A stretch of DNA of 64,000 nucleotides from Atribacterota bacterium (lineage in GTDB: Bacteria; Atribacterota; Phoenicimicrobiia; Phoenicimicrobiales; Stramentimicrobiaceae), in NCBI GenBank assembly GCA_028717805.1, contig JAQUNC010000001.1:52269-116268 (forward strand), read 5' to 3'. The position numbers and the translations under genes are program-made. The notes under the pieces are model-generated. The model saw only the letters and a list, made by a program, of their open reading frames with translations. It was not told the origin of the DNA and searched no databases. Shown here in pieces: positions 987 through 45,179 of the stretch; within the stretch, counting starts at the first letter, position 1; each line of letters begins with the position of its first letter.

Positions 987-1041
987 ACAGGTTAGACCAG
1001 GATATTTATTACCTGATTTTCAGGTACCGCTATTATCAATA

Positions 1042-3378: not shown

Positions 3379-3389
3379 GGACTAAAAAT

Positions 3390-4409: not shown

Positions 4410-4416
4410 AACAGGC

Positions 4417-4722: not shown

Positions 4723-4833
4723 AATTGGCTTCCTTTCTGAAAGTTTTTGCTGGTAAATTGTAACATCTTTTCAAATTAAAATCAAGAAGCAATAAGCTAA
4801 ATAGTTCTTATATTACAATTGTGGAGATAAAAG

Positions 4834-8233: not shown

Positions 8234-8252
8234 ACTTTTTTAAAATCTTACC

Positions 8253-9401
8253 ATGAGTATTAATAAAAGTATTGGTTTATATGTTCATATACCATTCTGT
8301 TTTTCAAAATGCCCTTATTGTGATTTTTTTTCTATTGTTACTGACAATAAGCAGTTAAAGAAAAATTATCTCTTGGCATTAAGACAGGAGATGGAAATTT
8401 ATAGTCAGAAAAATAAAGATATTGAAATTATATCAATTTATTTAGGCGGAGGAACTCCCACTGCTTTGGAAGGGATACAATTAAAAGAAATACTGGCTTC
8501 CTGTTACAGTAATTTTCACATAAAAAAGGGGATAGAAATTACCGTTGAAGGTAATCCTGGAACTATAGATAATGAGAAAATCAAAATGTTATTACAGGCA
8601 GGGGTAAATAGAATTAGTTTAGGAGCCCAATCTTTTAATAATAGAGTATTAAAGAAGATTGGAAGAATACATACTAAAAAAGATATTATGATTTCTTATC
8701 AATTAGCTAGAGAAGCTGGATATAAGAATATTAATCTTGATATTATGTTTGGTTTGCCGGGACAGAGCAAGACGGAATTCGAGCAAACATTAGATGAAGT
8801 AGTTCTACTAAAACCAGAACACATATCTCTCTATGCTCTTTCGGTGGAGCCAGGAACTCCTTTAGAATATTTAGTGAAAAAAGGTAAAATGAAACTTCCT
8901 TCTGATGATTTTAGTAACGAATTATTTTTAAGAGCAATTAATATTCTGGGTGAATATGGTTATGAACATTATGAAATATCCAATTTTGCTTTACCAGGAA
9001 GAAAGTGTTTTCATAATCAGATTTACTGGAAAAACCAGTCTTATTTGGGAATTGGAGCTGGAGCATCTTCTTATATAGATAATAAAAGGTATCAAAATTA
9101 TCGCGACTTGAGTGAATATGTTTTTCTTCTGGAACATGGTATGTTACCAATAGAATTTCAAGAAGTACTCTCCTGGAAGGAAAGGATGGTTGAAACAATA
9201 ATTTTAGAATTAAGGATGATGGAGGGATTGTCGAAAAATGATTTTTTGATAAAATTCAATATACCAGTAGAGAAAATATTCTGTAAACCCTTACAAATTT
9301 TGATAAAACAGGGTTTATTAGAAGAGAATGAAACCAGTTATTTTCTTACTACCAAGGGGATCTCGCTGGCAAATAATGTATTTATGGAATTTATAGATTG
9401 A
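8253..9401 (+). CDS. hemW: Radical SAM heme chaperone HemW (coproporphyrinogen III oxidase-like)
   Basis: CxxxCxxC motif YVHIPFCFSKCPYCDF, 382 aa, with the lepA-hemW synteny common in Firmicutes-like genomes. Confidence 0.85.
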   Translation: MSINKSIGLYVHIPFCFSKCPYCDFFSIVTDNKQLKKNYLLALRQEMEIYSQKNKDIEIISIYLGGGTPTALEGIQLKEILASCYSNFHIKKGIEITVEGNPGTIDNEKIKMLLQAGVNRISLGAQSFNNRVLKKIGRIHTKKDIMISYQLAREAGYKNINLDIMFGLPGQSKTEFEQTLDEVVLLKPEHISLYALSVEPGTPLEYLVKKGKMKLPSDDFSNELFLRAINILGEYGYEHYEISNFALPGRKCFHNQIYWKNQSYLGIGAGASSYIDNKRYQNYRDLSEYVFLLEHGMLPIEFQEVLSWKERMVETIILELRMMEGLSKNDFLIKFNIPVEKIFCKPLQILIKQGLLEENETSYFLTTKGISLANNVFMEFID

Positions 9402-9446
9402 AATATTTTTATCGTATATTTTAATATGTTCTTTCAGAAAGAAGTA

Positions 9447-9475
9447 TTGACAAAAAGTTTGTTGAGTGCTATCTT
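9447..9475 (+). promoter_or_regulatory. Sigma-A type promoter of the hrcA operon: TTGACA, 17-bp spacer, TGcTATCTT extended -10
   Basis: -35 TTGACA at 9447-9452; -10 TATCTT at 9470-9475 preceded by TG at 9467-9468. It lies immediately upstream of CIRCE. Confidence 0.5.
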
Positions 9476-9485
9476 AAATAAGAAA

Positions 9486-9512
9486 TTAGCACTCTCGGTC
9501 TTAGAGTGCTAA
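9486..9512 (+). promoter_or_regulatory. CIRCE operator (HrcA binding site), perfect consensus TTAGCACTC-N9-GAGTGCTAA
   Basis: The sequence reads TTAGCACTCtcggtcttaGAGTGCTAA exactly. It lies between the promoter and the hrcA RBS. Confidence 0.92.
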
Positions 9513-9527
9513 TTTGAGGTGATAATA

Positions 9528-10553
9528 ATGATAATAAATATTAGGATGAGTAATATCTTAAATGCTGTAGTGCATCTTTATATTACTAAAGCAGAACCTG
9601 TTAGCTCAGAAATGATTGTTTCTTATTACGATTTGCCCATTAGTACGGCAACTGTTCGCAATGATCTGCTGGTACTGGAAAAACTTGGCTTTTTGAAAAA
9701 ACCACATACCTCAGCAGGACGTGTGCCAACGGATAAAGGCTATCGCTTTTATGTAGACCAATTAATGGAAAAAGAAATTGACTATCTGACCGATAGAGAG
9801 AAACAAGAAATTATAGAACAATACAAAATGGTAAGAGATTACAATGAAATAATGAAGGTTACCTCTAAATTAATTTCCAGATTGACTAATAATCTAGGTG
9901 TGGTTCTAGCACCCAATATGGTAAAGGATACTTTAAGAGATATCCATTTTATTGCCTTAAATAATCAACGTATTTTGATAACTTTGGTTACTAATAGTGG
10001 TTTGTTTTTTCAAAAAATGATGAGAACTAATTGTGATATTTCTGAAGAAAATTTAGAAACCATTTCCCAGATTATAAAGAAGGAATTCTATGGTAAAAGT
10101 TTGGAAATAGTTAATGAAGAGATGTTGAACCAAATTTATCGTTATTATTTTAAATATCAGACTTTGGAATCAATCTGGAAATTGCTTGAAAGCTGTTTTA
10201 ATTTTACTGAAGATGAAGCGAAGATTTTTTTAGGCAATCGTAGTTATATATCACGGCAACCAGAATTCAAGGAAATTGAAAAATTAAATTATCTTTTTGA
10301 TTTTATTGAGGAAGAAAAGAATCTGGTTAAAATTATCAATAAATCCATTTTAAAAAAACAGATTGACATTATTATTGGCAGTGAACTGGGACAAGAGCTT
10401 ATGGAGAATTGTAGTGTAATTACCAGGCAATACCTCATCAAAGGGAAAATGAGAGGAGCTATTAGTGTTTTAGGACCTACAAGAATGGATTATTCCAAAT
10501 CTGTTTCTATCCTGGATTTTATTGCTGATCAGTTAAGTGAAATATTATCCTGA
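9528..10553 (+). CDS. hrcA: Heat-inducible transcription repressor HrcA
   Basis: The winged-helix N-terminus is ...ISTATVRNDLLVLEKLGFLKKPHTSAGRVPTDKGYRFYV. The six-frame ORF begins at GTG 9519. I place the start at ATG 9528, 7 nt after GAGG, so the start is uncertain by 3 codons. Confidence 0.85.
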   Translation: MIINIRMSNILNAVVHLYITKAEPVSSEMIVSYYDLPISTATVRNDLLVLEKLGFLKKPHTSAGRVPTDKGYRFYVDQLMEKEIDYLTDREKQEIIEQYKMVRDYNEIMKVTSKLISRLTNNLGVVLAPNMVKDTLRDIHFIALNNQRILITLVTNSGLFFQKMMRTNCDISEENLETISQIIKKEFYGKSLEIVNEEMLNQIYRYYFKYQTLESIWKLLESCFNFTEDEAKIFLGNRSYISRQPEFKEIEKLNYLFDFIEEEKNLVKIINKSILKKQIDIIIGSELGQELMENCSVITRQYLIKGKMRGAISVLGPTRMDYSKSVSILDFIADQLSEILS

Positions 10554-10616
10554 TGAGATAGTTGAAGAGTAAATTTAGGGAAAATGTTATAACTGTGCTA
10601 TCAGTGGAGGTAAATA

Positions 10617-11297
10617 ATGGATCATAATGAACAGCAAAGAAAAGAATGCGAAGATGTAAGTGATATTCAAATAGAAAAATATAAGAAGATGAAAAAAACA
10701 GAACTTCTTACAGAAATAGTGTCCCGAGATAAGAATCTAAAAGAAGTTGAAGATAGTTTAAAAAAAACAGAAGCTGATCTTGAAAAAATGGGAGAGAATG
10801 AAAAAACTTATAAAGAACAATTAATCAGAATGCAAGCTGATTTTGAAAACTATAAAAAAAGAGAAGAAAAGAAAAAACTTGAATTTATGGAATATGCCAA
10901 GCAAGATTTAATCTGTCAACTACTATCTGTAGTTGACAATTTAGAAAGGGCTACTTCCTATACTAGTGAACAAAACAATGAAAAGTACTATGAAAATATT
11001 AAAGAAGGACTAAAGGGTATTTTAAAGAATTTTCAAAATATATTGGAAAAAGAAGGTCTTAAACCCATTAAGGCTGTAGGTACAAAATTTGATCCTTATT
11101 GTCATGAGGCTATTATACAGGTTGAATCTGACAAATTTCCTGAGGATACAGTTATTGAGGAACTTATTAAGGGATATTATTTAAAAGCAAAAGTACTTAG
11201 GCCCTCTGTAGTTAAGGTTTCCAAGGGTGTCAGTGAAAAGCAAAAGGAAACCGAAAATAAAGCTGAAGATTTCAATAAGGATGATACAAAAAAATGA
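10617..11297 (+). CDS. grpE: Nucleotide exchange factor GrpE
   Basis: 226 aa with a coiled-coil N-terminus, the C-terminal FDPYCHEAI motif, and a position between hrcA and dnaK. Confidence 0.9.
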   Translation: MDHNEQQRKECEDVSDIQIEKYKKMKKTELLTEIVSRDKNLKEVEDSLKKTEADLEKMGENEKTYKEQLIRMQADFENYKKREEKKKLEFMEYAKQDLICQLLSVVDNLERATSYTSEQNNEKYYENIKEGLKGILKNFQNILEKEGLKPIKAVGTKFDPYCHEAIIQVESDKFPEDTVIEELIKGYYLKAKVLRPSVVKVSKGVSEKQKETENKAEDFNKDDTKK

Positions 11298-11337
11298 TAA
11301 TTGTTATAAGGAATAAAATAAAAGGAGGAAATTAATT

Positions 11338-13275
11338 ATGGCAAAAGCAATTGGAATTGATTTAGGTACTACAAATTCGGTTGTTGCTGTTATAGAAGGC
11401 GGCAAACCTATTGTTATAGAGAATAAAGAAGGTAGTAGAACTACTCCTTCCATGGTCGCTTTTACAAAAAAAGGAGAACGATTAGTCGGTTTGTTAGCAA
11501 AAAGACAGGCAGTAACCAATTCAAAAAATACTGTCTATTCTGTTAAACGATTTATTGGAAGACGTTTCACTGATTCAGAAGTACAACAAATTAAAAAAGT
11601 TCTTTCTTATGACATAGTAGAGGGAGAACATACAGATGTACAAATAAGAATTCAGGATAAGCTTCATAGCCCACAAGAGATATCAGCAATGGTTTTACAA
11701 AAGTTAAAACAAGCAGCAGAAGATCATCTGGGAGAGGAGATTAATGACGTTGTTATTACAGTTCCTGCCTATTTTAATGATAATCAGAGAGAAGCAACTA
11801 AGGCAGCAGGGAGAATAGCTGGCTTGAATGTCTTAAGAATAATAAATGAGCCCACTGCTGCTGCCCTGGCCTATGGTCTAGATAAGAAAAAAAGTGAAAA
11901 GATTGCTGTATTTGACCTGGGAGGAGGTACTTTTGATATTTCCATTTTAGATATAGGAGAGGGTGTTTTTGAGGTCAAGTCAACTAATGGAGATACTTTT
12001 TTGGGAGGAGATGACTTGGATCAGCGAGTCATCAATTGGCTGATTGACAATTTTAAAAAGGACCAAGGTATTGACTTAGGTAAAGATCAGATGGCTTTAC
12101 AGAGATTAAAAGAAGCTGCCGAGAAAGCTAAGTGTGAACTTTCTTCTTCATTGGAAACTGAGATTAATTTACCTTTTATTACGGCTGATACCAGTGGACC
12201 AAAACACCTAAATTATACTTTAACCAGAGCTAAATTAGAACAATTGACGGAAGATCTGTTAGGAAGAACCATAGAACCATGTAAAAAGGCATTAGCAGAT
12301 GCAAAAATGACTGCTGAAGATATTGATGAAGTGATTCTAGTAGGTGGTCAAACAAGAATGCCTAAGGTTCATGAAATAGTGAAGCAAATATTTGGCAAAG
12401 AACCTCATAAGGGAGTTAATCCTGATGAAGTAGTTGCTATGGGTGCTGCTATTCAAGCTGGAAAATTAAAAGGAGAAGTTAAAGACATTCAATTATTAGA
12501 TGTTACACCATTATCCCTGGGTATAGAAACCCTTGGTGGTGTATTTACTAAATTAATTGAAAGAAATACTACTATTCCGGCATCAAGACAGCAGATATTT
12601 TCAACTGCATCTGATAGTCAAACTGCTGTTGATATTAATGTTCTTCAAGGAGAAAGACCTTTGGCGAAGGATAATACCAGTTTAGGACGTTTCCAACTGG
12701 TAGGAATTCCACCAGCACCAAGAGGAGTTCCGCAGATTGAAGTTTCTTTTGATATTGATGCCAATGGTATTCTCAAGGTTACTGCAAAGGATAAAGGTAC
12801 AGGAAAAGAGCAAAAGATTACCATTAAACATTCCAGCGGATTAACGGAAGAAGAAATTCAAAAAAAGATAAAAGAATCAGAGCAGTATGCTGAAGAAGAT
12901 AGAAAACAAAAGGAGAAGGTGGAATTACACAATCAAGCAGATAATCTAATTTACATTACTGAAAAGACTCTGAAGGATGCTGGAGATAAGATTAGTGATA
13001 GCTTGAAAAATGAAATAGGTAATCATATCACTCAATTGAGAAAAGCTATGCAGGATGACAACATAGATGAAATGAAAGCGGGTATTGAAAAATTAACCAA
13101 TTCTTCTCATAAAATGGCTGAAGAGATGTATAAGCAGTCTTCAACTCAACAAGAACAACATACTCATTCTGGTAGCTCTTCTGACCAACAATCAGAGGGA
13201 GAACAGGAAGCACAAAAGGATGAAAAGGTATTTGATGCTGAATATAAAGAAGAGGATGGAGACAATACTAAATAA
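11338..13275 (+). CDS. dnaK: Chaperone DnaK (Hsp70)
   Basis: [22 protein letters not shown] and [11 protein letters not shown] motifs; 645 aa; strong aaggagg RBS. Confidence 0.97.
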
Positions 13276-13320
13276 TAGCTACCGGCTATAAAAGAAATAA
13301 TAAACTATATGAACTTTAAA

Positions 13321-13373
13321 ATCTTGCTGAATTTCTGGAGAAAATAATATTTTATCCAGAAATTCAGCAAGAT
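13321..13373 (+). terminator. Perfect 18-bp inverted repeat with a 17-nt loop between dnaK and dnaJ, a likely partial terminator or mRNA processing/stability hairpin
   Basis: atcttgctgaatttctgg...ccagaaattcagcaagat. It is followed by an AU-rich tract rather than a clean U-run. Confidence 0.4.
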
Positions 13374-13414
13374 AAGCTTATATATACTTATATTTTACTA
13401 AAGGGGTTTTTACT

Positions 13415-14566
13415 TTGGCTAGCAAGGATTATTACCAAATATTGGGAATTAACAAAGATGCTAATCAGGAAGAAATAAAGAAAGCATATCGTAAATTAGC
13501 TTTAAAATATCATCCAGATGCAAATCCTGATAAGAAGGAAGAGGCAGAAAAAAAATTTAAAGAGATAGGTGAAGCTTACGCTGTTTTAAGTGATCCGGAA
13601 AAGAGAGCTAGATATGACCAGTTTGGCTCTGCTGATACTTCCAATTTTGGTGCCGGATTTGACTTTAGAAACTTTTACGGTGAAGGAATGGATGATTTTA
13701 GTAGCTTTAGTGACATCTTTGAAAGTTTCTTTGGTGGTGGTACTCGTAGAACTTATCGCCGTGATAGAGCTAAAAAAGGAGCTGATTTAAGGTATAACCT
13801 AGAAATAACTTTAAAAGAAGCTGCTTTTGGAGCAGAAAAAAAGATTGAAATACCGGTTTGGCAAACATGCAGTAACTGTAAGGGAAGCGGAGCAGAACCA
13901 GGAACGACAAAAAAAACCTGTCCTGATTGTAAGGGAAGTGGAGAGATTAGGATTACTCAAAACACTTTTTTTGGTCAAACCATTAATATTCAAACTTGCC
14001 CCAGATGTAAGGGGGAGGGTAAGATTATAGAAACACCCTGTAGAGTCTGTCGTGGTTCTGGAAAGGTAAAGAAAAGAAAAACAATAAACATCAAAATTCT
14101 GGCTGGTGTGGAAAGTGGGCATCGTCTCAGACTGGCCGGTTTAGGAGAACCTGGTGAAAACGGTGGCCCTTCGGGAGACTTATTTATAGTTCTGTATGTT
14201 AAAGAGCATCCCATATTTAAACGAAGTGGGGCAGATATTTATTGTGACCATAAAATTAGCTTACCCAAAGCAATTTTAGGCGGAGAAACTACAGTTCCCA
14301 CTTTAGAGGGCAATGTTAAAATGCGTATACCAGCAGGGACTCAGAGTGATACTGTTTTTCGATTACGGGATAAAGGTGCTTATGTTCTTGGTTCTAAAAA
14401 TAGAGGAGATGAGCAAGTCAGGGTGATCGTAGAAATTCCTAAAAACTTAAATGCTAAGACAAAAAGATTGATTTATGAATTAGCCCAGGTAATGGGAGAA
14501 AATATTGACCAAATTGGTGAAAAAAATTTTTTTGAAAAGGTAAGAGATTCTTTTACCAAAAAATAA
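13415..14566 (+). CDS. dnaJ: Chaperone DnaJ (type I: J domain, G/F region, four CxxCxGxG zinc-finger repeats)
   Basis: [32 protein letters not shown] domain. The four repeats are [24 protein letters not shown] and [11 protein letters not shown] start 7 nt after aaagggg. Confidence 0.95.
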
Positions 14567-14581
14567 ATTTTGGTGAAATAA

Positions 14582-15898
14582 GTGACCTATAAAGTTGCCT
14601 TTAAAACTATAGGCTGTAAAGTAAATCAATACGAAACAGGTACTCTAAGACAGTCATTTATCAAAAATGGCTATCAGGTTGTTGAATTCCGAGATAATGC
14701 CGATATATATATTATTAACACCTGCTCTGTTACTGGGGAGGCCGAAAGAAAATCAAAGCAAATAATTAGAAGGGCAATCCGATTAAATCCCCTAGCTACC
14801 ATTATTGTAACTGGATGTGCAGTACAATCTAATTTACCTGAAATCAAGAAATGCAAAAATATCTCCTTAATTGTCGGAAACAGCTATAAAGAAGAAATTT
14901 TTAATATTATCAATCAGATACAATTAGCTGAAGAACAACAATTAATTTATATTAGTTCCCCAGAAAAAATTATCAGTTTTACAGAAAGTAAATATGATAG
15001 TGCCTCAAACCGTATTCGTGGATTGGTTAAAATACAGGATGGGTGCAACCAATTTTGCAGTTATTGCATTGTTCCCTATCTTCGTGGTCGAGCTAGAAGC
15101 AGGTCTATTAATCTAATATTATCTGAAATCAGGAATTTAAGCAGAAAGGGGTATAAAGAAGTTATTTTGCTGGGCATCAACCTGGGTAGTTTTGGCTCTG
15201 ATTTAAATAATACCAAAATAAATCTGATAAAATTAATTAGTAAAATAGAAAGTATTCCCAATATTGAGAGAATACGTTTGAGTTCTATAGAATTACCTTA
15301 TATTAACAAGGATCTTATTGATGCCTTTTATTACAACCCAAAGCTCTGTCATCATCTTCATATTCCTTTGCAAAGTGGTGATAACAGAATACTCTCTCTT
15401 ATGCATAGGAAATATACCACTGAACAATTTAGCAACATTATTGACTCAATTAAGGAGCAAATCCCTGATGTAGCTATTACTACAGACGTTATTGTTGGAT
15501 TTCCAGGTGAAGATGAAGAAGCATTTCAGAATACTATAAATTTAGTAAAAAAGATCGGCTTTAGTAAGGTACATGTTTTCCCTTATTCGGCGAGAAGACT
15601 TAACCTATCCTCATTTTTACCTGATAAAATTGATGAAAAGGTAATAAAAAATAGAAGTAGACAGCTAATTAATTTTTCAAAACAAATTGCCGGAGATTAT
15701 ATACGAAAAAGTCTTGGAAAAGAAAAGAATGTGTTAATTGAATTTCGAGGACAAGTTAAAAACGAAAGTTTTGTTTATGGTTTGACTGATAATTATATTA
15801 AAGTTTATATCTATGATGAAAATACTGAAAAGGGTCGCCTAATTAAAGTTAAAATAATTCAAGTTAATGATAGTTATGCAGTGGGGAAACCATTATAA
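14582..15898 (+). CDS. mtaB: Radical SAM methylthiotransferase of the MtaB/RimO family (tRNA t6A37 methylthiotransferase-like)
   Basis: UPF0004 N-terminus VAFKTIGCKVNQYETG, radical SAM CNQFCSYC motif, and a TRAM-like C-terminus. Its position downstream of dnaJ matches the B. subtilis yqeV locus. GTG start. Confidence 0.7.
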   Translation: MTYKVAFKTIGCKVNQYETGTLRQSFIKNGYQVVEFRDNADIYIINTCSVTGEAERKSKQIIRRAIRLNPLATIIVTGCAVQSNLPEIKKCKNISLIVGNSYKEEIFNIINQIQLAEEQQLIYISSPEKIISFTESKYDSASNRIRGLVKIQDGCNQFCSYCIVPYLRGRARSRSINLILSEIRNLSRKGYKEVILLGINLGSFGSDLNNTKINLIKLISKIESIPNIERIRLSSIELPYINKDLIDAFYYNPKLCHHLHIPLQSGDNRILSLMHRKYTTEQFSNIIDSIKEQIPDVAITTDVIVGFPGEDEEAFQNTINLVKKIGFSKVHVFPYSARRLNLSSFLPDKIDEKVIKNRSRQLINFSKQIAGDYIRKSLGKEKNVLIEFRGQVKNESFVYGLTDNYIKVYIYDENTEKGRLIKVKIIQVNDSYAVGKPL

Positions 15899-15965
15899 TA
15901 AGAATATTCTATAATATAAAGCAGGTATTGATGGGAATTTAATAATATGTATTAAAATTAAGATT

Positions 15966-15993
15966 TTGATATTTTTTATTTCTATGTTATAAT
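15966..15993 (+). promoter_or_regulatory. Near-consensus sigma-A promoter (TTGATA, 16-bp spacer, TGtTATAAT) in the nusA leader region
   Basis: -35 at 15966-15971; extended -10 TGtTATAAT at 15985-15993. Confidence 0.45.
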
Positions 15994-16023
15994 GTTATAA
16001 ATTTTAAAAACATCTTAATCTAG

Positions 16024-16057
16024 AAAAGAGTGGTTTGTGAACCACTCTTTTGTTTTG
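16024..16057 (+). terminator. Intrinsic terminator: 12-bp stem, 4-nt loop, then a U tract
   Basis: aaaagagtggtt-tgtg-aaccactctttt followed by gtttt. It sits about 30 nt downstream of the promoter above and 125 nt downstream of the mtaB stop. Confidence 0.6.
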
Positions 16058-16280
16058 TAATTCTATTTAACTATGCAAACTAATGCTTTGAAAGGTATTA
16101 ATGGTTAAATAACAGGACTCCTGTTTACTAACTTATTCTAATAGTAAACTATAGAGAAAGATGATATTATTAAGTTTTGAACAAAAGTTATTTTATTTAA
16201 GGAATAGAAGATAAGAAAAGGGACAAGTAAAAATACTCCAGTCTTCCCATATTATATAGGGGAGGAGGTTAATAAATATT

Positions 16281-17366
16281 ATGAACATTGATCTGATTAA
16301 AATACTTGATGAAATTGAAAAAGAAAAAGGTATCCCCAAAGAAGTTATATTGGATGCTATTGAGATATCTCTTGTTTCTGCTTATAAGAAAAATTTTGTT
16401 CAGGGAAAGGATACTGTAGAGATAAACATTGATAAAGAAAGTGGAAAGGTACAAGTGTTATCTAAAAAAATAGTAGTTGAGGAGGTCAAAAAGCCAAATT
16501 TAGAAATTGATATGGGGCAAGCTCAACAGTATAAAAAAGGAAATATTAAATTAGGAGATGAAATTAACGTTGAAATAACTCCGGAAGAATTTGGTCGGAT
16601 TGCTACTCAAACTGCTAAACAAGTTATTGTTCAAAAGATAAGAGAAGCAGAGAGAAAGGCAATATATGAAAGATATATTGATAAAGTTAGGGATATTGTG
16701 ACAGGAATTGTTCAACGTCAGGAACATTACAATTATATAATAGATTTAGGTAAAACAGAAGCTATCTTACCACCTAATGAGCAAGTAAAAAGCGAGGCTT
16801 ATAACAAAGGTAAGAGAATGAAGTTTTATGTAGTTGAAGTTAAAAAAACTTCAAAAGGACCTAGAATTATACTTTCTCGAACTCATCCTGATCTTCTAAA
16901 GCGCTTATTTGAGCTAGAAGTCCCTGAAATTCATGAAGGATTAGTAGAAATTAAGCAGATTGCCAGGGAAGCAGGAAAAAGGTCTAAAATTGCCGTTACC
17001 AGTAGAGATAATATGGTTGATTCAATCGGTTCCTGTATTGGAGACCGAGGTTCAAGAATTAAATCAATAATGACCGAACTTCAAGAAGAAAAAATAGACA
17101 TTATTAAATGGCATGAAGATGATAAGATATTTATTGCTAATTCTCTTAATCCAGCAAAAGTATTGTTGGTTAAATTGTTTGAAAAAGAAAAAAGGGCTTT
17201 AGTTGTAGTTAATGATCAACAACTATCTTTGTCTATTGGTAAAGAGGGACAGAATGCTCGCTTAGCTGCTAAGTTAACAGGCTGGAAGATTGATATAAAA
17301 AGTGAATCGCAATACAAGCAGGAAAATAATATCGAACAGAGTGTAGATTTAAGCAAAATGGCATAA
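16281..17366 (+). CDS. nusA: Transcription termination/antitermination factor NusA (short form, S1 plus two KH domains)
   Basis: MNIDLIKILDEIEKEKGIPKEVILDAIE N-terminus, 361 aa, with a gggaggagg RBS. Confidence 0.95.
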   Translation: MNIDLIKILDEIEKEKGIPKEVILDAIEISLVSAYKKNFVQGKDTVEINIDKESGKVQVLSKKIVVEEVKKPNLEIDMGQAQQYKKGNIKLGDEINVEITPEEFGRIATQTAKQVIVQKIREAERKAIYERYIDKVRDIVTGIVQRQEHYNYIIDLGKTEAILPPNEQVKSEAYNKGKRMKFYVVEVKKTSKGPRIILSRTHPDLLKRLFELEVPEIHEGLVEIKQIAREAGKRSKIAVTSRDNMVDSIGSCIGDRGSRIKSIMTELQEEKIDIIKWHEDDKIFIANSLNPAKVLLVKLFEKEKRALVVVNDQQLSLSIGKEGQNARLAAKLTGWKIDIKSESQYKQENNIEQSVDLSKMA

Positions 17367-17404
17367 AGAATTGCTAAATTAAAATACAATTTTATTGAAA
17401 GAAT

Positions 17405-17716
17405 ATGAAGAAAAAACAATTCCCAAAGATACCATATAGGACATGTATAGGATGTCAAGAAAAAAAACCGAAAAGAGATTTATTAAGAATTATTAGAACA
17501 CCTGATGGTGTTGTTGAAATTGATGAAACAGGTAAGAAATCAGGCCGTGGAGCATATTTATGTTATAATAAAACATGCTTCCAAGAAGCTATCAAAAAAA
17601 AGAGATTAGGAAAAGCATTAAAAATTGAACTTTCGATAGTAATAGTTCAAGAATTAGAAAAAAGGTTTAATTTAATAGAAAAGAATCAGAGTGATAATAC
17701 AAGTATTCCAAACTAG
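17405..17716 (+). CDS. ylxR: YlxR/RnpM family RNA-binding protein (DUF448)
   Basis: PYRTCIGCQEKKPKRDLLRIIRTPDGVVEIDETGKKSGRGAYLC motif, located between nusA and infB. Confidence 0.8.
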   Translation: MKKKQFPKIPYRTCIGCQEKKPKRDLLRIIRTPDGVVEIDETGKKSGRGAYLCYNKTCFQEAIKKKRLGKALKIELSIVIVQELEKRFNLIEKNQSDNTSIPN

Positions 17717-17785
17717 GCATTAGTAGATTAGTTAGAGAGCAATATTTTCTTGTTTACAAGCCGGTTGAGATGGAGGTCAATGTGT

Positions 17786-19720
17786 ATGAAAAAAAGAGTA
17801 TATGAAGTAGCTGAGGATTTAAAAATCCCTACAAAGGAATTAATTGACTTTTTAGCAAAGGAAGGAATTAATGTTAAAAATCACATGAGTACCCTTGATG
17901 ATGAGATAATTGAAATTATTAAGGAAGCTATCACTGAGGAAAGAAAAAAAGAGAAAAAAGTAGGAAATGAAGAAAGTAGTGTACTCGTATTGAATAAATT
18001 ACCAAGCTTAAAAGAGTTATCAATACAACTCAATTTATCTTTATCAAAAGCAATGCAACAAGCTTCTAAATTTGGTAAAATACAATCTATTGACAGAGAA
18101 TTACCATGGGAAATTGTTGAAAAAATATGTCAACAGCACAATATAAAGATAAATATATCCAGTAAACTAAAAAAGTTACTCAAAACTAAGTACACTAAAG
18201 ATATTAAACCTCTATCGACAGCTAAATCACCAGTTATTACTATTGTTGGTCATGTTGATCATGGCAAAACAACCCTACTTGATGTAATTAGAAAATCAAA
18301 CATCACCAAAAAGGAAGTAGGTGGTATTACCCAACATATTGGGGCTTATGTGGTTAATCTAAATAATAATCGATTTGTTTTTATTGATACCCCAGGGCAT
18401 GAAGCCTTTACCACTATGCGAGCCCGCGGTGTGAAGGCAACAGATATTGTAGTATTGGTCGTAGCTGCAGATGATGGTGTTATGCCACAAACTGTTGAAG
18501 CAATTAATCATGCCCGAGCAGCTAACGTTCCTATCATCATAGCCATAAACAAGATTGATAAAGCAAATGCTAATATAGATAAGGTAAAAAAAGATCTCTC
18601 TAAATATCAGTTAGTTCCAGAAGATTGGGGAGGAGACACTCTTATAGCTGAAATATCTGCTTTGCAGAAAAAGGGTATCGATGAGTTGTTAGAATTAATA
18701 TCTCTTCAAGCAGAAATATTAGAGCTAAAAGCTAATCCACAGCTCCCTGCTACTGGAGTTGTGATAGAAACTAAACTGGATAAGAGAAAAGGCGTTCTGG
18801 CAACTATTTTAATCCAAGATGGTCATCTGAAAATTGGCGATAATTTTGTTGTTGGAACTGCTTATGGAAAAGTTAGAAATATGATTGATGATATGGGAAA
18901 ACATCTTACCCAGGCAGGTCCTTCTACTCCAGTGGAAATAGCCGGTTTTAATAAAATGCCCATGGCTGGAGATATATTTCAAGTAGTTTCTAATGATCAT
19001 TTTGCCAAAATAATAATCAGTGAAAGGGAACTAGAAGAAAAACGAAAACAAAAAAAGGAAGAAGAGAAAGTTTCTCTGGAACGATTATTTGAAGAAATGA
19101 AAAAAGGTAAAATTAAAGAGTTAAATATTATCTTGAAAGCCGATACACAGGGATCTTTAGATGCTATTAAAGAAACTCTGTCTACTTTGAGCAATGAAGA
19201 GGTCGAAGTTAGAATAATTCATGGAGGTATTGGCACAATTACAGAAACAGATATTATGCTTGGTTCTGCTTCAAACGCTTTAGTTATAGGATTTAATGTA
19301 GCAGTGGACCACAATACTCAAAAGCTTGCCAAAAATGAAAAGATTGAAATTAGAACTTATAATATAATATATGATTTGATTGACGAAGTTAAGGCAGCAT
19401 TAAAAGGATATTTAAAACCCCAATTGGAAGAGGTAACCAATGGTATAGCTGAGGTGAGAGAAATATTCAAAATACCTAAGATTGGAGTTGTTGCTGGATG
19501 TTATGTTATTGAAGGAAAAATATCGACAAAAGACATCATCCGTGTTTTTCGTAAAGGGCAGAAATTATATGATGGAAAAGATTTTTCCTTAAAACGCTTT
19601 AAGGAAGATGTAAAGGAAGTAAATTCCGGATATGAGTGTGGTGTTCATATAGAAAAGTTTGATGACTTGCAAGTACAAGATAATATTGTTTTTTATAATT
19701 TTCAAGAAGTTACTAAATAA
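17786..19720 (+). CDS. infB: Translation initiation factor IF-2
   Basis: [12 protein letters not shown] and DTPGHEAF G-domain motifs. The ATG at 17786 lies 9 nt after GGAGG. The six-frame ORF extends upstream to 17750. Confidence 0.95.
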
Positions 19721-19725
19721 TTAAA

Positions 19726-20007
19726 ATGCTAGTCGGTATATGTGAAATTATTATATATTTACCAAATAGTCATTCTTTGAAAGACAAAAGAAGTATTCTG
19801 GAAAGCTATAAGGCTTCCTTGAGAAAAAAATATAACATATCTATTGCAGAAATCGATCAGAAAAATATATGGAAGAAAAGTATTATGGGAATTGTTTGTA
19901 TCAGTGACAATCGTGGAGCAATTGACCATATATTTCAAAAAATAATTAGGATTACTGAAAATCATTCTGAAATACAACTGCTTAATTATCGAATTTCTGT
20001 TAATTAG
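19726..20007 (+). CDS. DUF503 family protein (YlxP-like)
   Basis: 93 aa in the conserved position between infB and rbfA. Confidence 0.7.
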   Translation: MLVGICEIIIYLPNSHSLKDKRSILESYKASLRKKYNISIAEIDQKNIWKKSIMGIVCISDNRGAIDHIFQKIIRITENHSEIQLLNYRISVN

Positions 20008-20048
20008 ATAAAACAAAATCTAAGACTATACAATGGATAATTAGAAAA

Positions 20049-20429
20049 ATGGTTTTAGAACAAAAAAAGAAACATTTTGAAAAATTATTAAAAAGAAATA
20101 TAAGTCATATAATATATAGAAATACAAAAGATCCCCGTATTGGCTTTGTCACTGTAACCAGAATTACCCTATCCAATGACTTGCATAATGCAAAAGTATA
20201 TATTTCTATTCTGGGAAGTAAAGAAGAACAGGACAGAAGTCTAAAAGGTCTCTACAGTGCAACTAAATTTATAAGGGCAGAATTAGCACATGAGCTTAAG
20301 GGATATCGCTTTACGCCATCTATATCTTTTCACTTTGATAAGGAATTAGAAAAAGTACATCAACTTATGATAAAAGTCAGTAATTTGGAGAAGGAGAACG
20401 AAGATAGGGAAAAACAAAATGCAGAATGA
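20049..20429 (+). CDS. rbfA: Ribosome-binding factor A
   Basis: RIGFVTVTRITLSNDLHNAKVYISILG KH-like motif, 126 aa. Confidence 0.9.
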   Translation: MVLEQKKKHFEKLLKRNISHIIYRNTKDPRIGFVTVTRITLSNDLHNAKVYISILGSKEEQDRSLKGLYSATKFIRAELAHELKGYRFTPSISFHFDKELEKVHQLMIKVSNLEKENEDREKQNAE

Positions 20430-21426
20430 GAAAATATGCGAAATTGCCAGATTATTTAAAAAATACCATAACTTCATCATTACTTCTCATGTAAACTTAG
20501 ATGGTGATGCCCTGGGTTCAGAGCTAGCCTTATATTTTATGCTTAAACAGCTTGGAAAAGAAGTGAAGATTGTTAATCAAGACAAAGTACCATATATTTA
20601 TAAATTTATGCCAGGAATAGATGAGATTATCAACAGTGTTGAGCTTGATAAAAATTATGTTTTAGAAATTAAAAGTGATACAGTATTAGTGGTTCTTGAT
20701 TCAAGTAATTTAGAAAGAATTGGTAGCATACCTTTAGAAATTGATAAAATTAATATTATTGTAAATATTGATCATCATCCCAGTAACACATATTTTGGCC
20801 ATATTAATTATATTGATATTAATTCTTCCTCAGTTGGCGAGATTCTCTTTAAACTGAGCAAGGAGATGAATTGTCAATTAACAGAGCAAATAGCAATTCC
20901 CTTATTTACGGCAATAGTTACTGATACAGGTTCTTTTCGCTATGCTAATACCAGGGCTAAGACATTCCAAACTGCCTTTCATTTAGTTAAATCCGGAGTT
21001 AATCCTCACTTAATTACTAATTATATTTATAATAATAATGAATTATCCAGTCTAAAATTATTAGGAGAAGCGCTTCTAAAATTACAAGTTGACAAGAACT
21101 CAAGGATTTCCTGGACTATAGTTACCAGAGAAATGATAGATAAGAACTTGGCAAAAGAAGAAGAAACAGAGGGTATTGTTGATAGAATACTTTCAATCAA
21201 GAAAGTACAGATTTCGGTATTATTCAGGGAAACTAAAGAGGGAAAGACAAAAATCAGTTTCCGCTCTAAAAGTAGGTTTAATGTAGACCAATTTTCTCGA
21301 ATATTTGGTGGAGGTGGTCACCCCAATGCAGCAGGTTGTCAATTAGAGGGAAACATGAATGCCATAGTTGATACAGTAATTGGAAGATTGAAAAAAGCGC
21401 TTGACGATTGTAATTTTAATCAGTGA
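20419..21426 (+). CDS. nrnA: DHH/DHHA1 family phosphoesterase, NrnA-like (oligoribonuclease/pAp phosphatase)
   Basis: DHH motif (NIDHHPSN) and DHHA1 GGGGHPNAAG motif; 335 aa. Confidence 0.75.
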   Translation: MQNEKICEIARLFKKYHNFIITSHVNLDGDALGSELALYFMLKQLGKEVKIVNQDKVPYIYKFMPGIDEIINSVELDKNYVLEIKSDTVLVVLDSSNLERIGSIPLEIDKINIIVNIDHHPSNTYFGHINYIDINSSSVGEILFKLSKEMNCQLTEQIAIPLFTAIVTDTGSFRYANTRAKTFQTAFHLVKSGVNPHLITNYIYNNNELSSLKLLGEALLKLQVDKNSRISWTIVTREMIDKNLAKEEETEGIVDRILSIKKVQISVLFRETKEGKTKISFRSKSRFNVDQFSRIFGGGGHPNAAGCQLEGNMNAIVDTVIGRLKKALDDCNFNQ

Positions 21427-27403: not shown

Positions 27404-29611
27404 ATGTCAAAAATTGAGAAAAAAAATTATTCCGTTAAGATTAAGAAAAGAGTTATAGGTATTTTTCTAATCTTTATTGCTATTTATTACTTATATATGC
27501 TTTTTTCCCCTGAAAAAACAATTGCTCCCTTTCTTAATATTATCAACAATATCAACAAGCTAATTGGATTGGGTAAATATTTCATATTTGTCTTTATGAT
27601 GATTGAAGGTTTTCATTTACTTTTTAATTTTAATATTCCCAATTTCTATAATAGAATGTTTGGAATTACCTCTTTAATATTGGTATTATTAGCTTTTATT
27701 CATTTAAGATTAATATTTATTGAAAACGCCTATTATATGTCCATTAAGGGAATAGGCGGAGGCCTTTATGGATATTATATAGCAAGGCATTTAAATAATT
27801 ATTTTGGCTTATCCGGAGCTTATCTATTTCTCATTGCCCTGGGTTTAATTGCACTATTATTTGCAACAGATCTTTCTTTTCTGTACCTTTTTAGCTTTAT
27901 TTTTAAAAGAATAGTAATTGGATTCAATAGGTTGGTAACAATATTTCCAACCAATAGAATGAAAGAAAAAAGAATGCAGAAAAGAGAATCAAGAAAATCA
28001 ATTAAAATTTATTCATCAAATACTGAGGAAATAAAAAGAAAACCAGAACCAATTTTTAAGAAAGATATTTTATCAAAAGACGAAAAAAAATCAACATCAG
28101 CAATTCAAGAGAAGATAGATTTTATGGTAAAGGGTGATGATGAAGAAAAAAGACTTTCTAACTATTATATTGCCCCATCGATTACTTTATTAAATGAACC
28201 AAAAAAAGAATATAAAGATCGGGATCTGGAAAAAATAAAAGAAAATATTGCTCTATTACAGAGAACTTTGGATAATTTTAATATTCAGGGTGAAGTAATA
28301 GGTGCAACCCAGGGGCCAACGGTAACAAGATATGAAATTCAACCTGCACCCGGGGTGAAAGTATCAAAAATTACCAATCTTAGTAATGATATCGCCTTAG
28401 CATTTGCGTCTCCTTCAGTAAGAATTGAAACCCCTATTCCAGGTAAGAATGCCATAGGCATTGAAGTTCCTAACAAGGAAAAAAACATCGTCTTTTTAAG
28501 AGAAATAATTGAATCAAAAAATTATCAAAGTAATTCTTTTATTTTACCTATAGTACTGGGAAAAGATATAGGTGGGAAAAATATTATTGCAGACTTAGTG
28601 GAATTACCTCATCTACTTATTGCGGGTTCAACAGGATCAGGTAAAAGCGTCTGCCTTAATACCATTATCTTGAGTTTGGTTTATCGTTTTGGTCCTGAAA
28701 TGGTCAAGTTTTTAATTATTGATCCAAAAAGAGTAGAACTTAACATATATAATGGGATACCCCATCTAATTACTCCTATTGTTACTAATACTAAAAAAGT
28801 TGATAAGGTACTTAATTGGGCTATTTCTGAGATGGAAAGAAGATTTAAAATATTTGCTGAGGTTGGAGTTCGCAATTTAAAAGGATATCATGACTATATT
28901 AAAAGTATAAAATCTGAGGAAACAAATTTACCATATATTGTCTTTATTATTGATGAATTAGCTGATTTAATGCTTTCTTCGCCAGTGAAAGTAGAAGAAG
29001 CATTATGCAGGTTAGCTCAAATGACCCGAGCTACGGGAATTCATCTTATTATTGCCACTCAAAGACCTTCTGTAGATATTATTACTGGTTCCATCAAGAT
29101 TAATTTTCCTTCGCGTATTGCCTTTGCAGTATCCACTCAGGTTGATTCAAGGACTATTCTGGATGTAAATGGAGCTGAAAAATTGCTGGGCAATGGAGAT
29201 ATGCTTTTCTCCCCCATTAACGCTCCCAAACCTATAAGAGCCCAAGGAGCATTTGTTTCAGAAAAGGAAATTAAGGATATTGTATCATTTCTAGTCAAGA
29301 ATAATCTCCCTCCAGATTATAATGAAAATATAATTGAACATTTACAACAAAAAGAAGGTGAAAGTGAAGGAATGGGAGATGATGAAGAAGATGAATTATT
29401 CGAAGATGCAGTAGATACAATTATTAATAATAATCAAGCTTCAATTTCCATTTTACAAAGAAAGTTGAGAATTGGTTATACCAGAGCAGCTCGTTTAATA
29501 GATTTAATGGAAAAAAGGGGATTAGTTGGACCATATGATGGTCGTAATCCCAGAAAAATATTACTTTCTAAAGAAAATTTTTTCTCTAATTATAAAAACT
29601 CAAATTCTTAG
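27404..29611 (+). CDS. ftsK: DNA translocase FtsK/SpoIIIE
   Basis: N-terminal TM helices, a linker, the GSTGSGKS Walker A motor, and a C-terminal winged-helix gamma domain (ISILQRKLRIGYTRAARLIDLME). Confidence 0.9.
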   Translation: MSKIEKKNYSVKIKKRVIGIFLIFIAIYYLYMLFSPEKTIAPFLNIINNINKLIGLGKYFIFVFMMIEGFHLLFNFNIPNFYNRMFGITSLILVLLAFIHLRLIFIENAYYMSIKGIGGGLYGYYIARHLNNYFGLSGAYLFLIALGLIALLFATDLSFLYLFSFIFKRIVIGFNRLVTIFPTNRMKEKRMQKRESRKSIKIYSSNTEEIKRKPEPIFKKDILSKDEKKSTSAIQEKIDFMVKGDDEEKRLSNYYIAPSITLLNEPKKEYKDRDLEKIKENIALLQRTLDNFNIQGEVIGATQGPTVTRYEIQPAPGVKVSKITNLSNDIALAFASPSVRIETPIPGKNAIGIEVPNKEKNIVFLREIIESKNYQSNSFILPIVLGKDIGGKNIIADLVELPHLLIAGSTGSGKSVCLNTIILSLVYRFGPEMVKFLIIDPKRVELNIYNGIPHLITPIVTNTKKVDKVLNWAISEMERRFKIFAEVGVRNLKGYHDYIKSIKSEETNLPYIVFIIDELADLMLSSPVKVEEALCRLAQMTRATGIHLIIATQRPSVDIITGSIKINFPSRIAFAVSTQVDSRTILDVNGAEKLLGNGDMLFSPINAPKPIRAQGAFVSEKEIKDIVSFLVKNNLPPDYNENIIEHLQQKEGESEGMGDDEEDELFEDAVDTIINNNQASISILQRKLRIGYTRAARLIDLMEKRGLVGPYDGRNPRKILLSKENFFSNYKNSNS

Positions 29612-43023: not shown

Positions 43024-43051
43024 AATAATTGATATTATAAAAATATTTTAT

Positions 43052-43079
43052 TGTTCCGATAATATATCTTATGTAAAGT
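43052..43079. other. dif: Candidate dif site (XerC/XerD chromosome dimer resolution site): TGTTCCGATAA-TATATC-TTATGTAAAGT
   Basis: It matches the B. subtilis dif ACTTCCTAGAA-TATATA-TTATGTAAACT at 22 of 28 positions, with 10 of 11 in the XerD arm. It lies 29 bp after the miaA stop, at the point where gene orientation switches from + to -. Confidence 0.5.
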
Positions 43080-43919
43080 GATGGAGGATATTAATAAAAG
43101 ATAATTAGTCTTTATTTTATTTATTTTATCCAAGTTACCCCTTATATCTTTCTTAGAAGTTAGAAATTTTGCTTGTAAGTTCATTCTATGTTACTTAAAT
43201 ATCTATTCATTTTAATTTTATTTATTATTTTTTCCATCATTTAGTAAAATTATTTAAAATTAAAATGTAATTCATTACTTCCAATATTAGTTTCGGTTAT
43301 TCTAAATAATATTAAAAAATCTTTTTAATACGATATGCTTACGTTTAATTTAATTTCTTTTGAACAAACAATAAATATTTCTCTCATTAATGGAATACAA
43401 AATAAGTATTAGAAATTCTATAATATTGATTGATTAATATAATTATTTTGATAATTTTAACTAACTTTATTAGTTATTATATTCAACACTGTATTTTAAA
43501 AATATTTTTATAAATATGTTTAAAAATAAAAAATATTAGAAAATAAACTAACATATTATTGTAATATACCAGAATAACTCAAAATACGTTCAAAATTGAA
43601 AAAATAATTAGGTATTAATGGTTTTATATTTATAGAAAAAATATCAATATTTTTTCAATTAATTGTAAATATTAATTCAATCCAAAATATTTAAAAGATA
43701 GAAGTATTTTTTAAATAAGTATACTAATATATGATGTTATATAATTTCAATGAACAAACTTCAAAATTTCATTGTAAAAATATTTTTAAAAAAATAAAAA
43801 AATAGAAATAGAATATTTAATATTGAAATATATTATTTTTATTTTTCAATTATATTTCAATATTCATTAAAGCTTATTACTACATATAAAAATATAAAAA
43901 GACAAATTTGGTAAGTTAA

Positions 43920-44264
43920 TTAGCAAGTTAAGTGTAACGCAGCAACTTTTTTTAGAGCAGTTTCCTTATTATAATATTGACAAGCTATTTTTGTTTTTTC
44001 AACTATTAGATTTTTTATACCCAAATCTTTTAATTCTTGTATCAAATAATTATCAACCTTCATCAAGCCATATCTACCGGTACCAATAATTAAAATATCT
44101 GGTTTATAATTTATAACGCTTTCTAAATCTGCAATCCTTAAAAAATGCTCTTCTCCTCTCCACCATTTATCCTGAACATGATCGGGAAATACAATAACAT
44201 CTGTTTTATAGCTTGAACCATTAATTATTATTTTACCAAATTGATATTTTACAATAGTATTCAT
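43920..44264 (-). CDS. Mth938-like domain protein (DUF498 family)
   Basis: 114 aa with ...DVIVFPDHVQDKWWRGEEHFL...PDILIIGTGRYGLMKV...LGIKNLIVEKTKIACQYYN, which matches the Mth938 fold family consensus. Confidence 0.6.
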   Translation of the reverse strand: MNTIVKYQFGKIIINGSSYKTDVIVFPDHVQDKWWRGEEHFLRIADLESVINYKPDILIIGTGRYGLMKVDNYLIQELKDLGIKNLIVEKTKIACQYYNKETALKKVAALHLTC

Positions 44265-44315: not shown

Positions 44316-45179
44316 TTATTGAAAAATAATTGAAGCATAACCAACAACCTGATCATTCATACCGGAAACATCGCCTGATGTGGCATATTTTAATAATTTA
44401 CCCCTATTGATACCTAATCTTTTACAAGTCTCCATCACTACAGAAATAGTTCCAGGACCGCAAATAGAAGCACCATTTTCCTGAATTGTTTTATAAAAAA
44501 GGCCAGTATCCATATTAAGAATTTGCTTAATTCCTTCAGCATCTTTGCGCTTTGTACTTTCCTGGTCTTCATAGTGATTGAAGTCAGAACTGGCAATTAA
44601 GAGAAATGCACTGTAATTGTCCTTAATTGTTTTGTATATTATATCGGTTAGATATTTCATTAATGAAAGTTGCTGATTAGTGACGCAAATAGGTATGATT
44701 TTGTATTCATTGGCAGGATAAATGAATTGCAAAAATGGTAACTGCACTTCAATGGAATGTTCAAAAAGATGTGCTTGAAAATCATCTTGGATCATTTTTT
44801 TTTCATCATGAGCAAGCATTTCACTGGCTATAAGCTGATCAATTTCTATCATTCCTAGGGGTGTTTCCCATTGACCCGAAGACATAAGTGATATGTCTCC
44901 TCCCAAACCTCTATGATTAGGGCCAAGTATAATAATAATTGGAGGCGTTTTTTCTAAAGAAAGTTGTAAATAATTATAAGCTGCAACTGGACCTGAAAAC
45001 ATAAATCCTGCATGGGGAGAAATAATACCCATTATTTTTCTATCTCTTTTCTCATTTTTCGTGGGTAATGCTTGAGGACCGATTTGATGCAAAAAGCAAT
45101 CTTTTATTTGTTGATATAAGGATTTCCGATTAGCTGCATAAAAAGAACCAGCGACAACAGCTCTTCTTTTGTGTTCCAT
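44316..45179 (-). CDS. MEMO1-family protein (AmmeMemoRadiSam system protein B-like)
   Basis: 287 aa with AVVAGSFYAAN...GIISPHAGFMFSGPVAAYNY...LGPNH, typical MEMO1 motifs. Confidence 0.75.
   Translation of the reverse strand: MEHKRRAVVAGSFYAANRKSLYQQIKDCFLHQIGPQALPTKNEKRDRKIMGIISPHAGFMFSGPVAAYNYLQLSLEKTPPIIIILGPNHRGLGGDISLMSSGQWETPLGMIEIDQLIASEMLAHDEKKMIQDDFQAHLFEHSIEVQLPFLQFIYPANEYKIIPICVTNQQLSLMKYLTDIIYKTIKDNYSAFLLIASSDFNHYEDQESTKRKDAEGIKQILNMDTGLFYKTIQENGASICGPGTISVVMETCKRLGINRGKLLKYATSGDVSGMNDQVVGYASIIFQ

Follow-up and report, generated by a model that had tools for sequence, protein, structure and literature searches.

A predicted chromosomal dif site at a local replichore junction in Atribacterota, and a tailed prophage inserted in the same site of a sister species

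What is the role of a 28-bp sequence found exactly where two long blocks of genes converge in the DNA of an uncultured Atribacterota bacterium? The sequence occupies positions 43052..43079 (+ strand) of a 64-kb stretch, referred to here as the window, which lies in the 73.5-kb contig JAQVGP010000006.1 of the metagenome-assembled genome (MAG) GCA_028696625.1, whose proteins are named Atribacterota by NCBI. A first-pass annotation had proposed that this 28-mer is a candidate dif site, a site of recombination by Xer enzymes, and the analysis described here supports that proposal through a footprint conserved throughout the phylum, a core that recurs across phyla at flips of nucleotide skew, and a prophage crossover inside the site. 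With a probability of roughly 93%, the 28-mer is the chromosomal dif site at the junction of both replichores, as predicted from sequence, position, conservation and a natural insertion. The dif site itself is an ordinary element of a well-known kind, and an integrase-less tailed prophage that occupies it in a sister species is the more novel lead.

The 28-bp site and the local replichore junction

Read directly from the window, the 28-mer is TGTTCCGATAA-TATATC-TTATGTAAAGT (whole string, TGTTCCGATAATATATCTTATGTAAAGT). It can be divided into a left half-site or putative XerC/CodV-type arm (TGTTCCGATAA, 43052..43062, +), a 6-bp central region (TATATC, 43063..43068, +) in which strand exchange would be expected, and a right half-site or putative XerD/RipX-type arm (TTATGTAAAGT, 43069..43079, +). 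The provisional assignment of the left arm to XerC follows the convention used for B. subtilis and E. coli (PMC5357621). Compared to the B. subtilis dif sequence (ACTTCCTAGAATATATATTATGTAAACT, as printed in Kono et al. 2011; PMC3025954), the site is identical at 22 of 28 positions, with 7/11 in the XerC arm, 5/6 in the centre and 10/11 in the XerD arm; the overall and XerD-arm values given by the first-pass annotation were reproduced exactly on recomputation. Compared to E. coli dif, 20 of 28 positions are identical, including 9 of 11 in the right arm. The two arms are complementary at 6 of 11 positions and form an imperfect dyad around the 6-bp centre, with inner symmetry ..ATAA / TTAT...

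The 28-mer is the top match to B. subtilis dif in the window. The runners-up reached 19/28, and the best matches in 20 mononucleotide shuffles of the 64 kb reached 19–21/28; therefore, the match in the window is by itself only modestly significant, being suggestive and not decisive. No second copy of the 28-mer with up to three mismatches was found within the 64-kb window, and no dif half-site was found elsewhere in it. Two other stretches of the 73.5-kb contig, one scanned directly (L001) and the other with a 24-nt core of the site only (L214), contained no further copy. Within the window and these stretches, the site is single-copy.

The site is located at a sharp change of gene strand. The open reading frame (ORF) of miaA (IPPT domain) ends at 43023, and the site starts 29 nt after it. 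All ORFs of at least 100 aa before 43023 are on the + strand, except rpsT (4417-4722) and a short ORF (13811-14122) inside the dnaJ ORF, and all those past 43920 are on the − strand, except three short + ORFs overlapping annotated − strand genes. Therefore, apart from these few exceptions, about 43 kb of + strand genes and about 20 kb of − strand genes meet at the site, as had been described in the first-pass annotation. On the contig, the + block runs 6.6 kb further to the left (tig, clpP, clpX, valS and folC), and the right end of the contig is 647 bp upstream of rpsB.

Nucleotide skew changes at the same place. GC skew in 2-kb windows is positive to the left of about 43 kb, except at 1001-3000 (−0.005), and negative everywhere to the right; similarly, 1-kb sums of G−C stay positive or close to zero until 43 kb and are negative from there on. 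The cumulative G−C maximum at 43108 and the cumulative A−T maximum at 43043 bracket the site at a distance of at most 30 bp. Together with the switch of ORF strand, these maxima define a local replichore junction at 43043..43108 (no strand assigned). A skew extremum at the site was likewise seen in every related Atribacterota locus for which both flanks were available.

Conservation within Atribacterota and recurrence across phyla

Related loci were gathered using MiaA, exact-protein look-ups and a pattern scan of one genome per species, and the site with 150 bp on each side was aligned for the window, L007, L111/L204, L123, L160, L186, L189 and L196. Positions 3-28 of the site (26 of 28 bases) were invariant in nine Atribacterota loci that are 70–95% identical at the nucleotide level in their coding flanks. 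The intergenic bases flanking the site on both sides were unalignable, and of the flanks only the coding part of miaA, at the left margin, could still be aligned. Within the left arm, bases 1-2 vary among relatives (TG/TA/AC/AG) and the other nine are invariant; the right arm is invariant in these relatives, and the centre is so in all Atribacterota loci. The invariant 26-mer was also seen in L207-L210. In a more distant lineage (L211-L213), whose Memo protein is 49% identical, the sequence reads GTCCTATAATATATCTTATGTAAAGT and keeps 24 of the 26 bases. For matching of genomes, the string NNTTCCGATAATATATCTTATGTAAAGT represents the Atribacterota form of the site and NNGTCCTATAA... the form of the other lineage.

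A flip of GC skew from + to − was found at the site in five of the five loci with more than 1 kb on both flanks (the window, L007, L186, L189 and L196). The site directly follows miaA in most lineages, and in L211 it follows the DUF498 gene, with a 9-kb island between the site and miaA. Since the neighbours differ between lineages yet the switch of skew and strand is constant, the site tracks the switch and not any neighbouring gene.

The L211 island (11470-20630) encodes DUF3800, HEPN_AbiV and DUF6338 proteins, two DNA methyltransferases and a LexA-like protein; neither an integrase nor a second dif-like site or half-site was found in it, and L189 likewise contained no second dif or half-site. 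Atribacterota contigs often end at the site or within about 1 kb of it. Examples include L111 (dif at bases 26-53), L204 (at the contig end), L160 (19 bp), L123 (326 bp), L186 (1,040 bp) and both L212 and L213 (about 200 bp), and in one MAG two contigs overlap on the dif site itself. These breaks are consistent with structural variation in the population, such as prophages or islands, or with poor assembly of the AT-rich flanks.

When one genome per species was scanned for a 24-nt core of the site, TTCCGATAATATATNTTATGTAAA, matches were obtained in at least 120 genome stretches that belong to many phyla. The groups bearing it include Bacillota, Actinomycetota, Atribacterota, Thermodesulfobacteriota, Fibrobacteraceae, Nitrospirae, Planctomycetia, Desantisbacteria and Dictyoglomaceae, among others. 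By chance, fewer than one match would be expected in 596 Gb, as estimated even for a GC content of 35% throughout. The four bases left unspecified in the core were conserved as well, with 57 of the 120 listed matches reading ACTTCCGATAATATATATTATGTAAACT. At least 120 matches compared to fewer than one expected, and the conservation of bases that the pattern did not specify, indicate that the matched sequences are the dif sites of those genomes.

The positions of these sequences pointed in the same direction. Among the 59 core loci with at least 1.5 kb on both sides, a terminus-type skew flip was found in 39, an origin-type flip in 3 and no flip in 17, compared to 0 of 54 control loci centred on miaA homologues. 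In two of the large records among the matches listed, the complete Brochothrix campestris chromosome and a 4.7-Mb Cytobacillus gottheilii scaffold, the site is at 51–53% of the sequence. This agrees with the study of Kono et al., who located dif no more than about 1–3% away from the shift in skew, made predictions of dif for 16 phyla and reported that a Firmicute profile retrieves dif in many other phyla (PMC3025954).

All but two genomes gave one hit among the matches listed. The first exception is an overlapping pair of contig ends from one MAG. The second is Halalkalibacterium ligniniphilum NZ_ANNK01000091.1 (L092 and L142), in which two copies lie 3,792 bp apart, each within an exact repeat of 1,067 bp extending to the end of the contig. 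A genome with two dif sites was considered here and rejected, as the repeat probably arose during assembly. Another match, L097 (CAWVLT010000051.1), is labelled Coriobacteriia, has 63% GC and unrelated flanks, and reads AGTTCCGATAATATATCTTATGTAAAGT; its last 26 bases are those of the Atribacterota site, which shows strong cross-phylum conservation of this putative dif variant. In the non-Atribacterota loci L199, L091, L191, L099, L162, L137, L105, L126 and L117, a tyrosine-recombinase gene was present within a few kb of dif. These genes could be xerC near dif, as noted by Kono et al., or parts of integrated elements.

Recombination machinery, an inserted prophage and alternative explanations

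The window encodes an FtsK DNA translocase (27404..29611, +), which would be the expected accessory factor of a dif site. It contains the Pfam domains FtsK_4TM, FtsK_alpha, FtsK_SpoIIIE and FtsK_gamma, and its best NCBIfam match is DNA translocase FtsK. The gamma (winged-helix) segment matched the solved chains 2VE8, 2J5O and 5DCF with E-values of 1e-11 to 1e-13, so that the gene and its gamma domain, both named in the first-pass annotation, were confirmed. The accompanying statement that the gamma domain directs Xer recombination at dif is established for E. coli but not for the Firmicute-type system most like this site, and no direct activation of the recombinases by the translocases of B. 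subtilis is known (PMC5357621).

No tyrosine recombinase was found in the window or in the examined parts of its contig. In B. subtilis, the gene order of the corresponding region is topA-gid-codV-clpQ-clpY ... rpsB-tsf-pyrH, and the recombinase was sought by walking right from pyrH along this order. In a sister species with about 95% nucleotide identity (contig Ga0334882_1000082), the order is der-plsY-topA-(306-aa tyrosine recombinase)-hslV-hslU-rpsB-tsf-pyrH. The recombinase gene (L222 4717-5637) encodes protein P0255, which scored 305 bits with the XerD model TIGR02225, passed NF001399 'tyrosine recombinase' (291 vs 279) and reached 128 bits against the XerS cutoff of 267. An orthologue with 96% identity to it, P0256, is encoded between topA and hslV in GCA_028706875.1, SRR31227859 and ERR14964773 (L237-L240), which are conspecific with the window. 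Each of these assemblies holds at least one protein identical to that of the window (HolA, PyrH or Memo), and SRR31227859 carries the identical 28-mer. The presence of P0256 and window-identical proteins in the same assemblies indicates that the window species encodes an Xer-family enzyme. Its xerC-type gene is probably located a few kb beyond the end of the contig, which stops 647 bp before rpsB.

In the mechanism proposed for the site, homologous recombination would sometimes fuse sister chromosomes into a dimer, and FtsK at the septum would pump DNA until the two copies of dif meet. Xer tyrosine recombinases bound on the arms would then exchange strands in TATATC and restore the monomers, with either one recombinase per arm or a single enzyme on both arms. 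The FtsK gamma domain could act through activation, as in E. coli, or through positioning of the terminus, as in B. subtilis. The pairing of arms with recombinases, a separate XerD, the order of strand exchange and activation by FtsK are all presumed here by analogy with these systems (PMC5357621).

A natural case of recombination at the site was provided by the sister species. In independent assemblies of related samples, its locus was polymorphic and either empty or occupied. The empty alleles (L226, L228 and L230) read miaA ... TATTCCGATAA TATATC TTATGTAAAGT aatgggaaat ... DUF498. In the occupied alleles, about 33.3 kb of prophage DNA lie between the DUF498 gene and miaA, with both junctions contained in a single contig of 161.7 kb (L225, L233, L235 and L007). 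The prophage occupies about 80.96-114.3 kb of contig Ga0334882_1000082 (pieces L225 11089-11114, L233 ~2140-20426, L235 1-14720 and L007 6994-12951). At the miaA-side junction (L007), a complete regenerated dif is followed by new sequence. The DUF498-side junction is a hybrid, AAGTATATTAA TATATC TTATGTAAAGT, beyond which the host flank is unaltered (L225, L229 and L231). In this hybrid, the left arm of the host is replaced by the phage arm AAGTATATTAA, and the centre and right arm are common to both partners. The junction sequences therefore place the crossover within the 17 bp of the centre and right arm. The phage attachment site (attP) has a diverged left arm (5/11), and its predicted circular junction reads ...tatacgattAAGTATATTAATATATCTTATGTAAAGTaaaaggggatatt.... 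The insertion of this prophage precisely in the site is in vivo evidence that the sequence is recombinogenic, and it shows that the 28-mer is a target of site-specific recombination in vivo, whichever enzyme acts.

The prophage encodes Rep_O/DnaD, RusA, a ParB-like nuclease, the large terminase, a portal-MuF protein, an S78 protease, an HK97-type capsid, a tail tube, a tape measure and an endolysin, and the gene of a 104-aa helix-turn-helix (HTH) repressor abuts dif. No integrase, serine recombinase or transposase domain was detected by Pfam in its approximately 50 genes. A recombinase was likewise absent from the PHROGs matches of ORFs that lacked annotation and from a tblastn search in which the Xer protein served as query; two structural genes account for the remaining 360 bp of the prophage. 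As no phage recombinase was found, the host Xer system is the most economical explanation, and insertion would presumably depend on it. An evenly balanced proposal is that a whole family of temperate tailed phages (HK97-type, siphovirus-like) attaches at the Atribacterota dif, and that these phages lack an integrase and hijack host Xer through a 17-bp attP mimicking the centre and XerD arm. Such phages would, with odds that are again about equal, be integrative mobile elements exploiting Xer (IMEX) among the Caudoviricetes. Alternatively, a phage-encoded recombinase may have gone unrecognised among the ORFs without annotation.

The use of host Xer by such a phage family was also considered against viral sequence data. 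The exact attP junction of the prophage had no match in IMG/VR, and relatives found through the terminase contained no dif-like 17-mer within about 10 kb of the terminase gene. No report linking Xer exploitation with tailed phages was found in a literature search that was not exhaustive. One viral contig, IMGVR_UViG_3300031553_000013 (37.7 kb, terminase 77% identical), contains an internal ATATCCTGTAA TATATC TTATGTAAAGT (L323 8101-8128) directly after a 62-aa HTH gene. This copy separates late genes from early genes, which would be the layout of an attP that has not integrated. In IMG/VR, TAATATATCTTATGTAAAGT is present in ten contigs (including L321, L322, L323, L324, L325, L326, L329 and L327/L330) in combination with differing left arms, and several of the ten share proteins with the prophage. 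Some of the copies are internal and next to an HTH gene and are candidate attP sites; others are at or near contig ends (L324, L325, L326, L328 and L329). The left arm of L325, L326 and L329 is of the ..GTCCTATAA type, like the dif of the L211 lineage, and these sequences look like provirus borders at a host dif. A different kind of variation was seen in L227 (10345-10740), from a 208.9-kb contig of the sister species, when compared to L226. Just past an inverted repeat (ACTGCTCTCCC...GGGGAGCAGT), the sequence switches to phoH-ybeY-...-recO-glyQS on the same strand with no dif. This was rejected as an Xer event, as the two sequences part 175 bp downstream of DUF498 instead of at dif; the switch may reflect a rearrangement or a chimeric assembly.

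The prophage raises the question of whether the site is mainly a scar of mobile elements (attL/attR, or a pseudo-dif of a phage or IMEX), with the true dif elsewhere. A scar could account for the occupation of exactly this site in the sister species by a prophage whose attP shares 17 bp with it, for the same 20-mer in several viral contigs, and for a structurally variable neighbourhood in which many MAG contigs end. However, the window, L226, L228 and L230 are empty sites between housekeeping genes with no element, and the full 26-mer, including the left arm that the phage lacks, is kept phylum-wide and fits the dif consensus of many phyla at skew flips. In addition, no second site or half-site is present in the window, which has the configuration of an empty bacterial attachment site (attB) and not the structure of an IMEX. 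Collectively, these observations make a scar very unlikely.

Less likely still is recognition of the site by a protein other than Xer, for instance in a replication-fork trap (Ter/RTP-like), or a regulatory or terminating role for miaA or for the operon converging on it. A position at a terminus-like junction directly behind miaA and the partial dyad symmetry (6/11 between the arms) would suit such roles, but no terminator-like structure was predicted, and the same sequence is present beside unrelated genes in other lineages and phyla, including the 63% GC contig. The sequence is that of the established Xer-site consensus, and to our knowledge it resembles no known Ter consensus. Finally, a chance dif-like match in AT-rich intergenic DNA between convergent operons is barely conceivable. 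In its favour, an AT-rich motif is set in a window of about 30% GC, 22/28 is weak by itself when shuffled 64-kb sequences score up to 21/28, and a window should contain about one occurrence of the right-arm 11-mer if one base is left free. Against it, 26 of 28 bases are invariant among relatives whose intergenic flanks have diverged past alignment, the core is exact in at least 120 genome stretches across phyla, and a site-specific insertion occurred inside it.

Several points weigh against the identification of the 28-mer as a chromosomal dif. First, the skew extremum is local only, because the source is a 73.5-kb MAG contig, and with a strong gene-strand bias it is confounded with the switch of coding strand. 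Second, FtsK-orienting polar sequences (KOPS) and SpoIIIE recognition sequences (SRS) add little. Motifs polarised toward the site from both sides were counted over the whole window (GAGAAGGG 5:0, GAAGAAG 29:1 and GAGAAGG 13:0), and the KOPS GGGNAGGG was nearly absent, with 2 copies. This KOPS/SRS-like polarity is confounded, since the most skewed k-mers are generic purine-rich words of coding strands; it was dropped as independent evidence, being inseparable from coding-strand purine bias. Third, the single-copy status covers the 64-kb window and parts of the contig, and the source MAG is not among the core matches listed, which bears on genome-wide uniqueness. Fourth, P0255 scored 329 bits with the XerC model TIGR02224, just below the equivalog cutoff of 335. 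Fifth, one Xer paralogue only was found; of the xerC and xerD genes that the first-pass annotation had looked to, a XerC-type recombinase is present in the conspecific assemblies, and tblastn with that protein retrieved no XerD among the collected Atribacterota loci.

The surroundings of the site can be described briefly. An AT-rich non-coding spacer of 840 bp (43080..43919, no strand assigned; about 22–24% GC) separates dif from the DUF498 gene, which is convergent and has its 3′ end next to the spacer. It contains no ORF of at least 50 aa wholly inside it, no Rfam match at E ≤1 and no terminator; its promoter-like sites are at chance level, and its repeats are of low complexity only. Compared to L111, the spacer is 82.6% identical against 94.5% in the flanks, with a 160-bp indel, and it may be decayed DNA. 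To the right are a DUF498/MTH938-family gene (43920-44264) and a Memo-family gene (44316-45179), the product of which is named 'AmmeMemoRadiSam system protein B' by NCBI, followed by genes for an NHL-TPR protein, plsC and a V-type ATPase operon. The gene order from Memo on is conserved in the Atribacterota lineages examined, and DUF498 was not called in L207-L210.

Comparison with known Xer systems

As a chromosomal dif, the 28-mer would mark where replication ends and the two replichores join in the genome of an uncultured Atribacterota bacterium and would show that Atribacterota use a classical, Firmicute-like 28-bp site. A literature search on Xer or dif in Atribacterota returned nothing relevant. 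The 26-nt marker TTCCGATAATATATCTTATGTAAAGT can be used to orient MAG contigs and to recognise why assemblies of this group are prone to break at this locus.

The closest known system is B. subtilis dif with CodV-RipX. Both sites have 28 bp in an 11-6-11 arrangement, are identical at 22 of 28 positions, belong to genomes with a translocase of the FtsK/SpoIIIE family, and would share a location in the terminus region. The xerC-type gene of the sister species is in a topA-...-hslVU context, for which we take codV-clpQY of B. subtilis to be the counterpart. Unlike B. subtilis, the site has the left arm TTCCGATAA against TTCCTAGAA and the centre TATATC instead of TATATA, the host phylum is Atribacterota, and one Xer paralogue has been seen so far. 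Compared to E. coli dif, the architecture is the same, as the terminus location would be, and the gamma domain of the window FtsK is homologous to the solved gamma domains of E. coli and P. aeruginosa, including the XerD-gamma fusion 5DCF. Unlike in E. coli, the left arm and centre have diverged and the KOPS GGGNAGGG is almost absent (2 copies). The polar motifs of the window resemble Firmicute SRS or L. lactis types, a resemblance confounded by strand composition.

Similarities also exist with the systems that use one recombinase, namely difSL/XerS of streptococci and lactococci, difH/XerH of epsilon-proteobacteria and dif/XerA of archaea, in that an Xer site at a putative terminus is accompanied by one Xer paralogue found so far. 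The difSL site is 31 bp long and genetically linked to xerS (PMC5357621). In contrast, the Atribacterota site is a classical two-arm site of 28 bp, with no recombinase gene in the 43 kb on its left or the 21 kb on its right, and its recombinase scores best with the XerC and XerD models, the XerS score being 128 bits against a cutoff of 267.

Finally, the prophage of the sister species can be compared to IMEX such as CTX-phi, VGJ-phi, TLC-phi, the gonococcal island and the dif-type double-jelly-roll vibriophages. Like these elements, it has no detectable integrase and an attP that mimics 17 bp of dif, one of its junctions regenerates the canonical dif, and its repressor gene abuts the site. This pattern matches the 'right/left-armed' dif-like attP described in Vibrio (PMC12715192). 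Unlike known IMEX, it is not filamentous, microvirus-like or tailless; it is a 33-kb tailed prophage with an HK97-type capsid, terminase, portal and tape measure, its host is an Atribacterota bacterium, and its use of Xer is presumed from the lack of a recombinase among its recognised genes. If the dependence on Xer is true, tailed phages would join the filamentous and tailless phages that exploit Xer, and this lifestyle would reach a poorly studied phylum that branches deeply.

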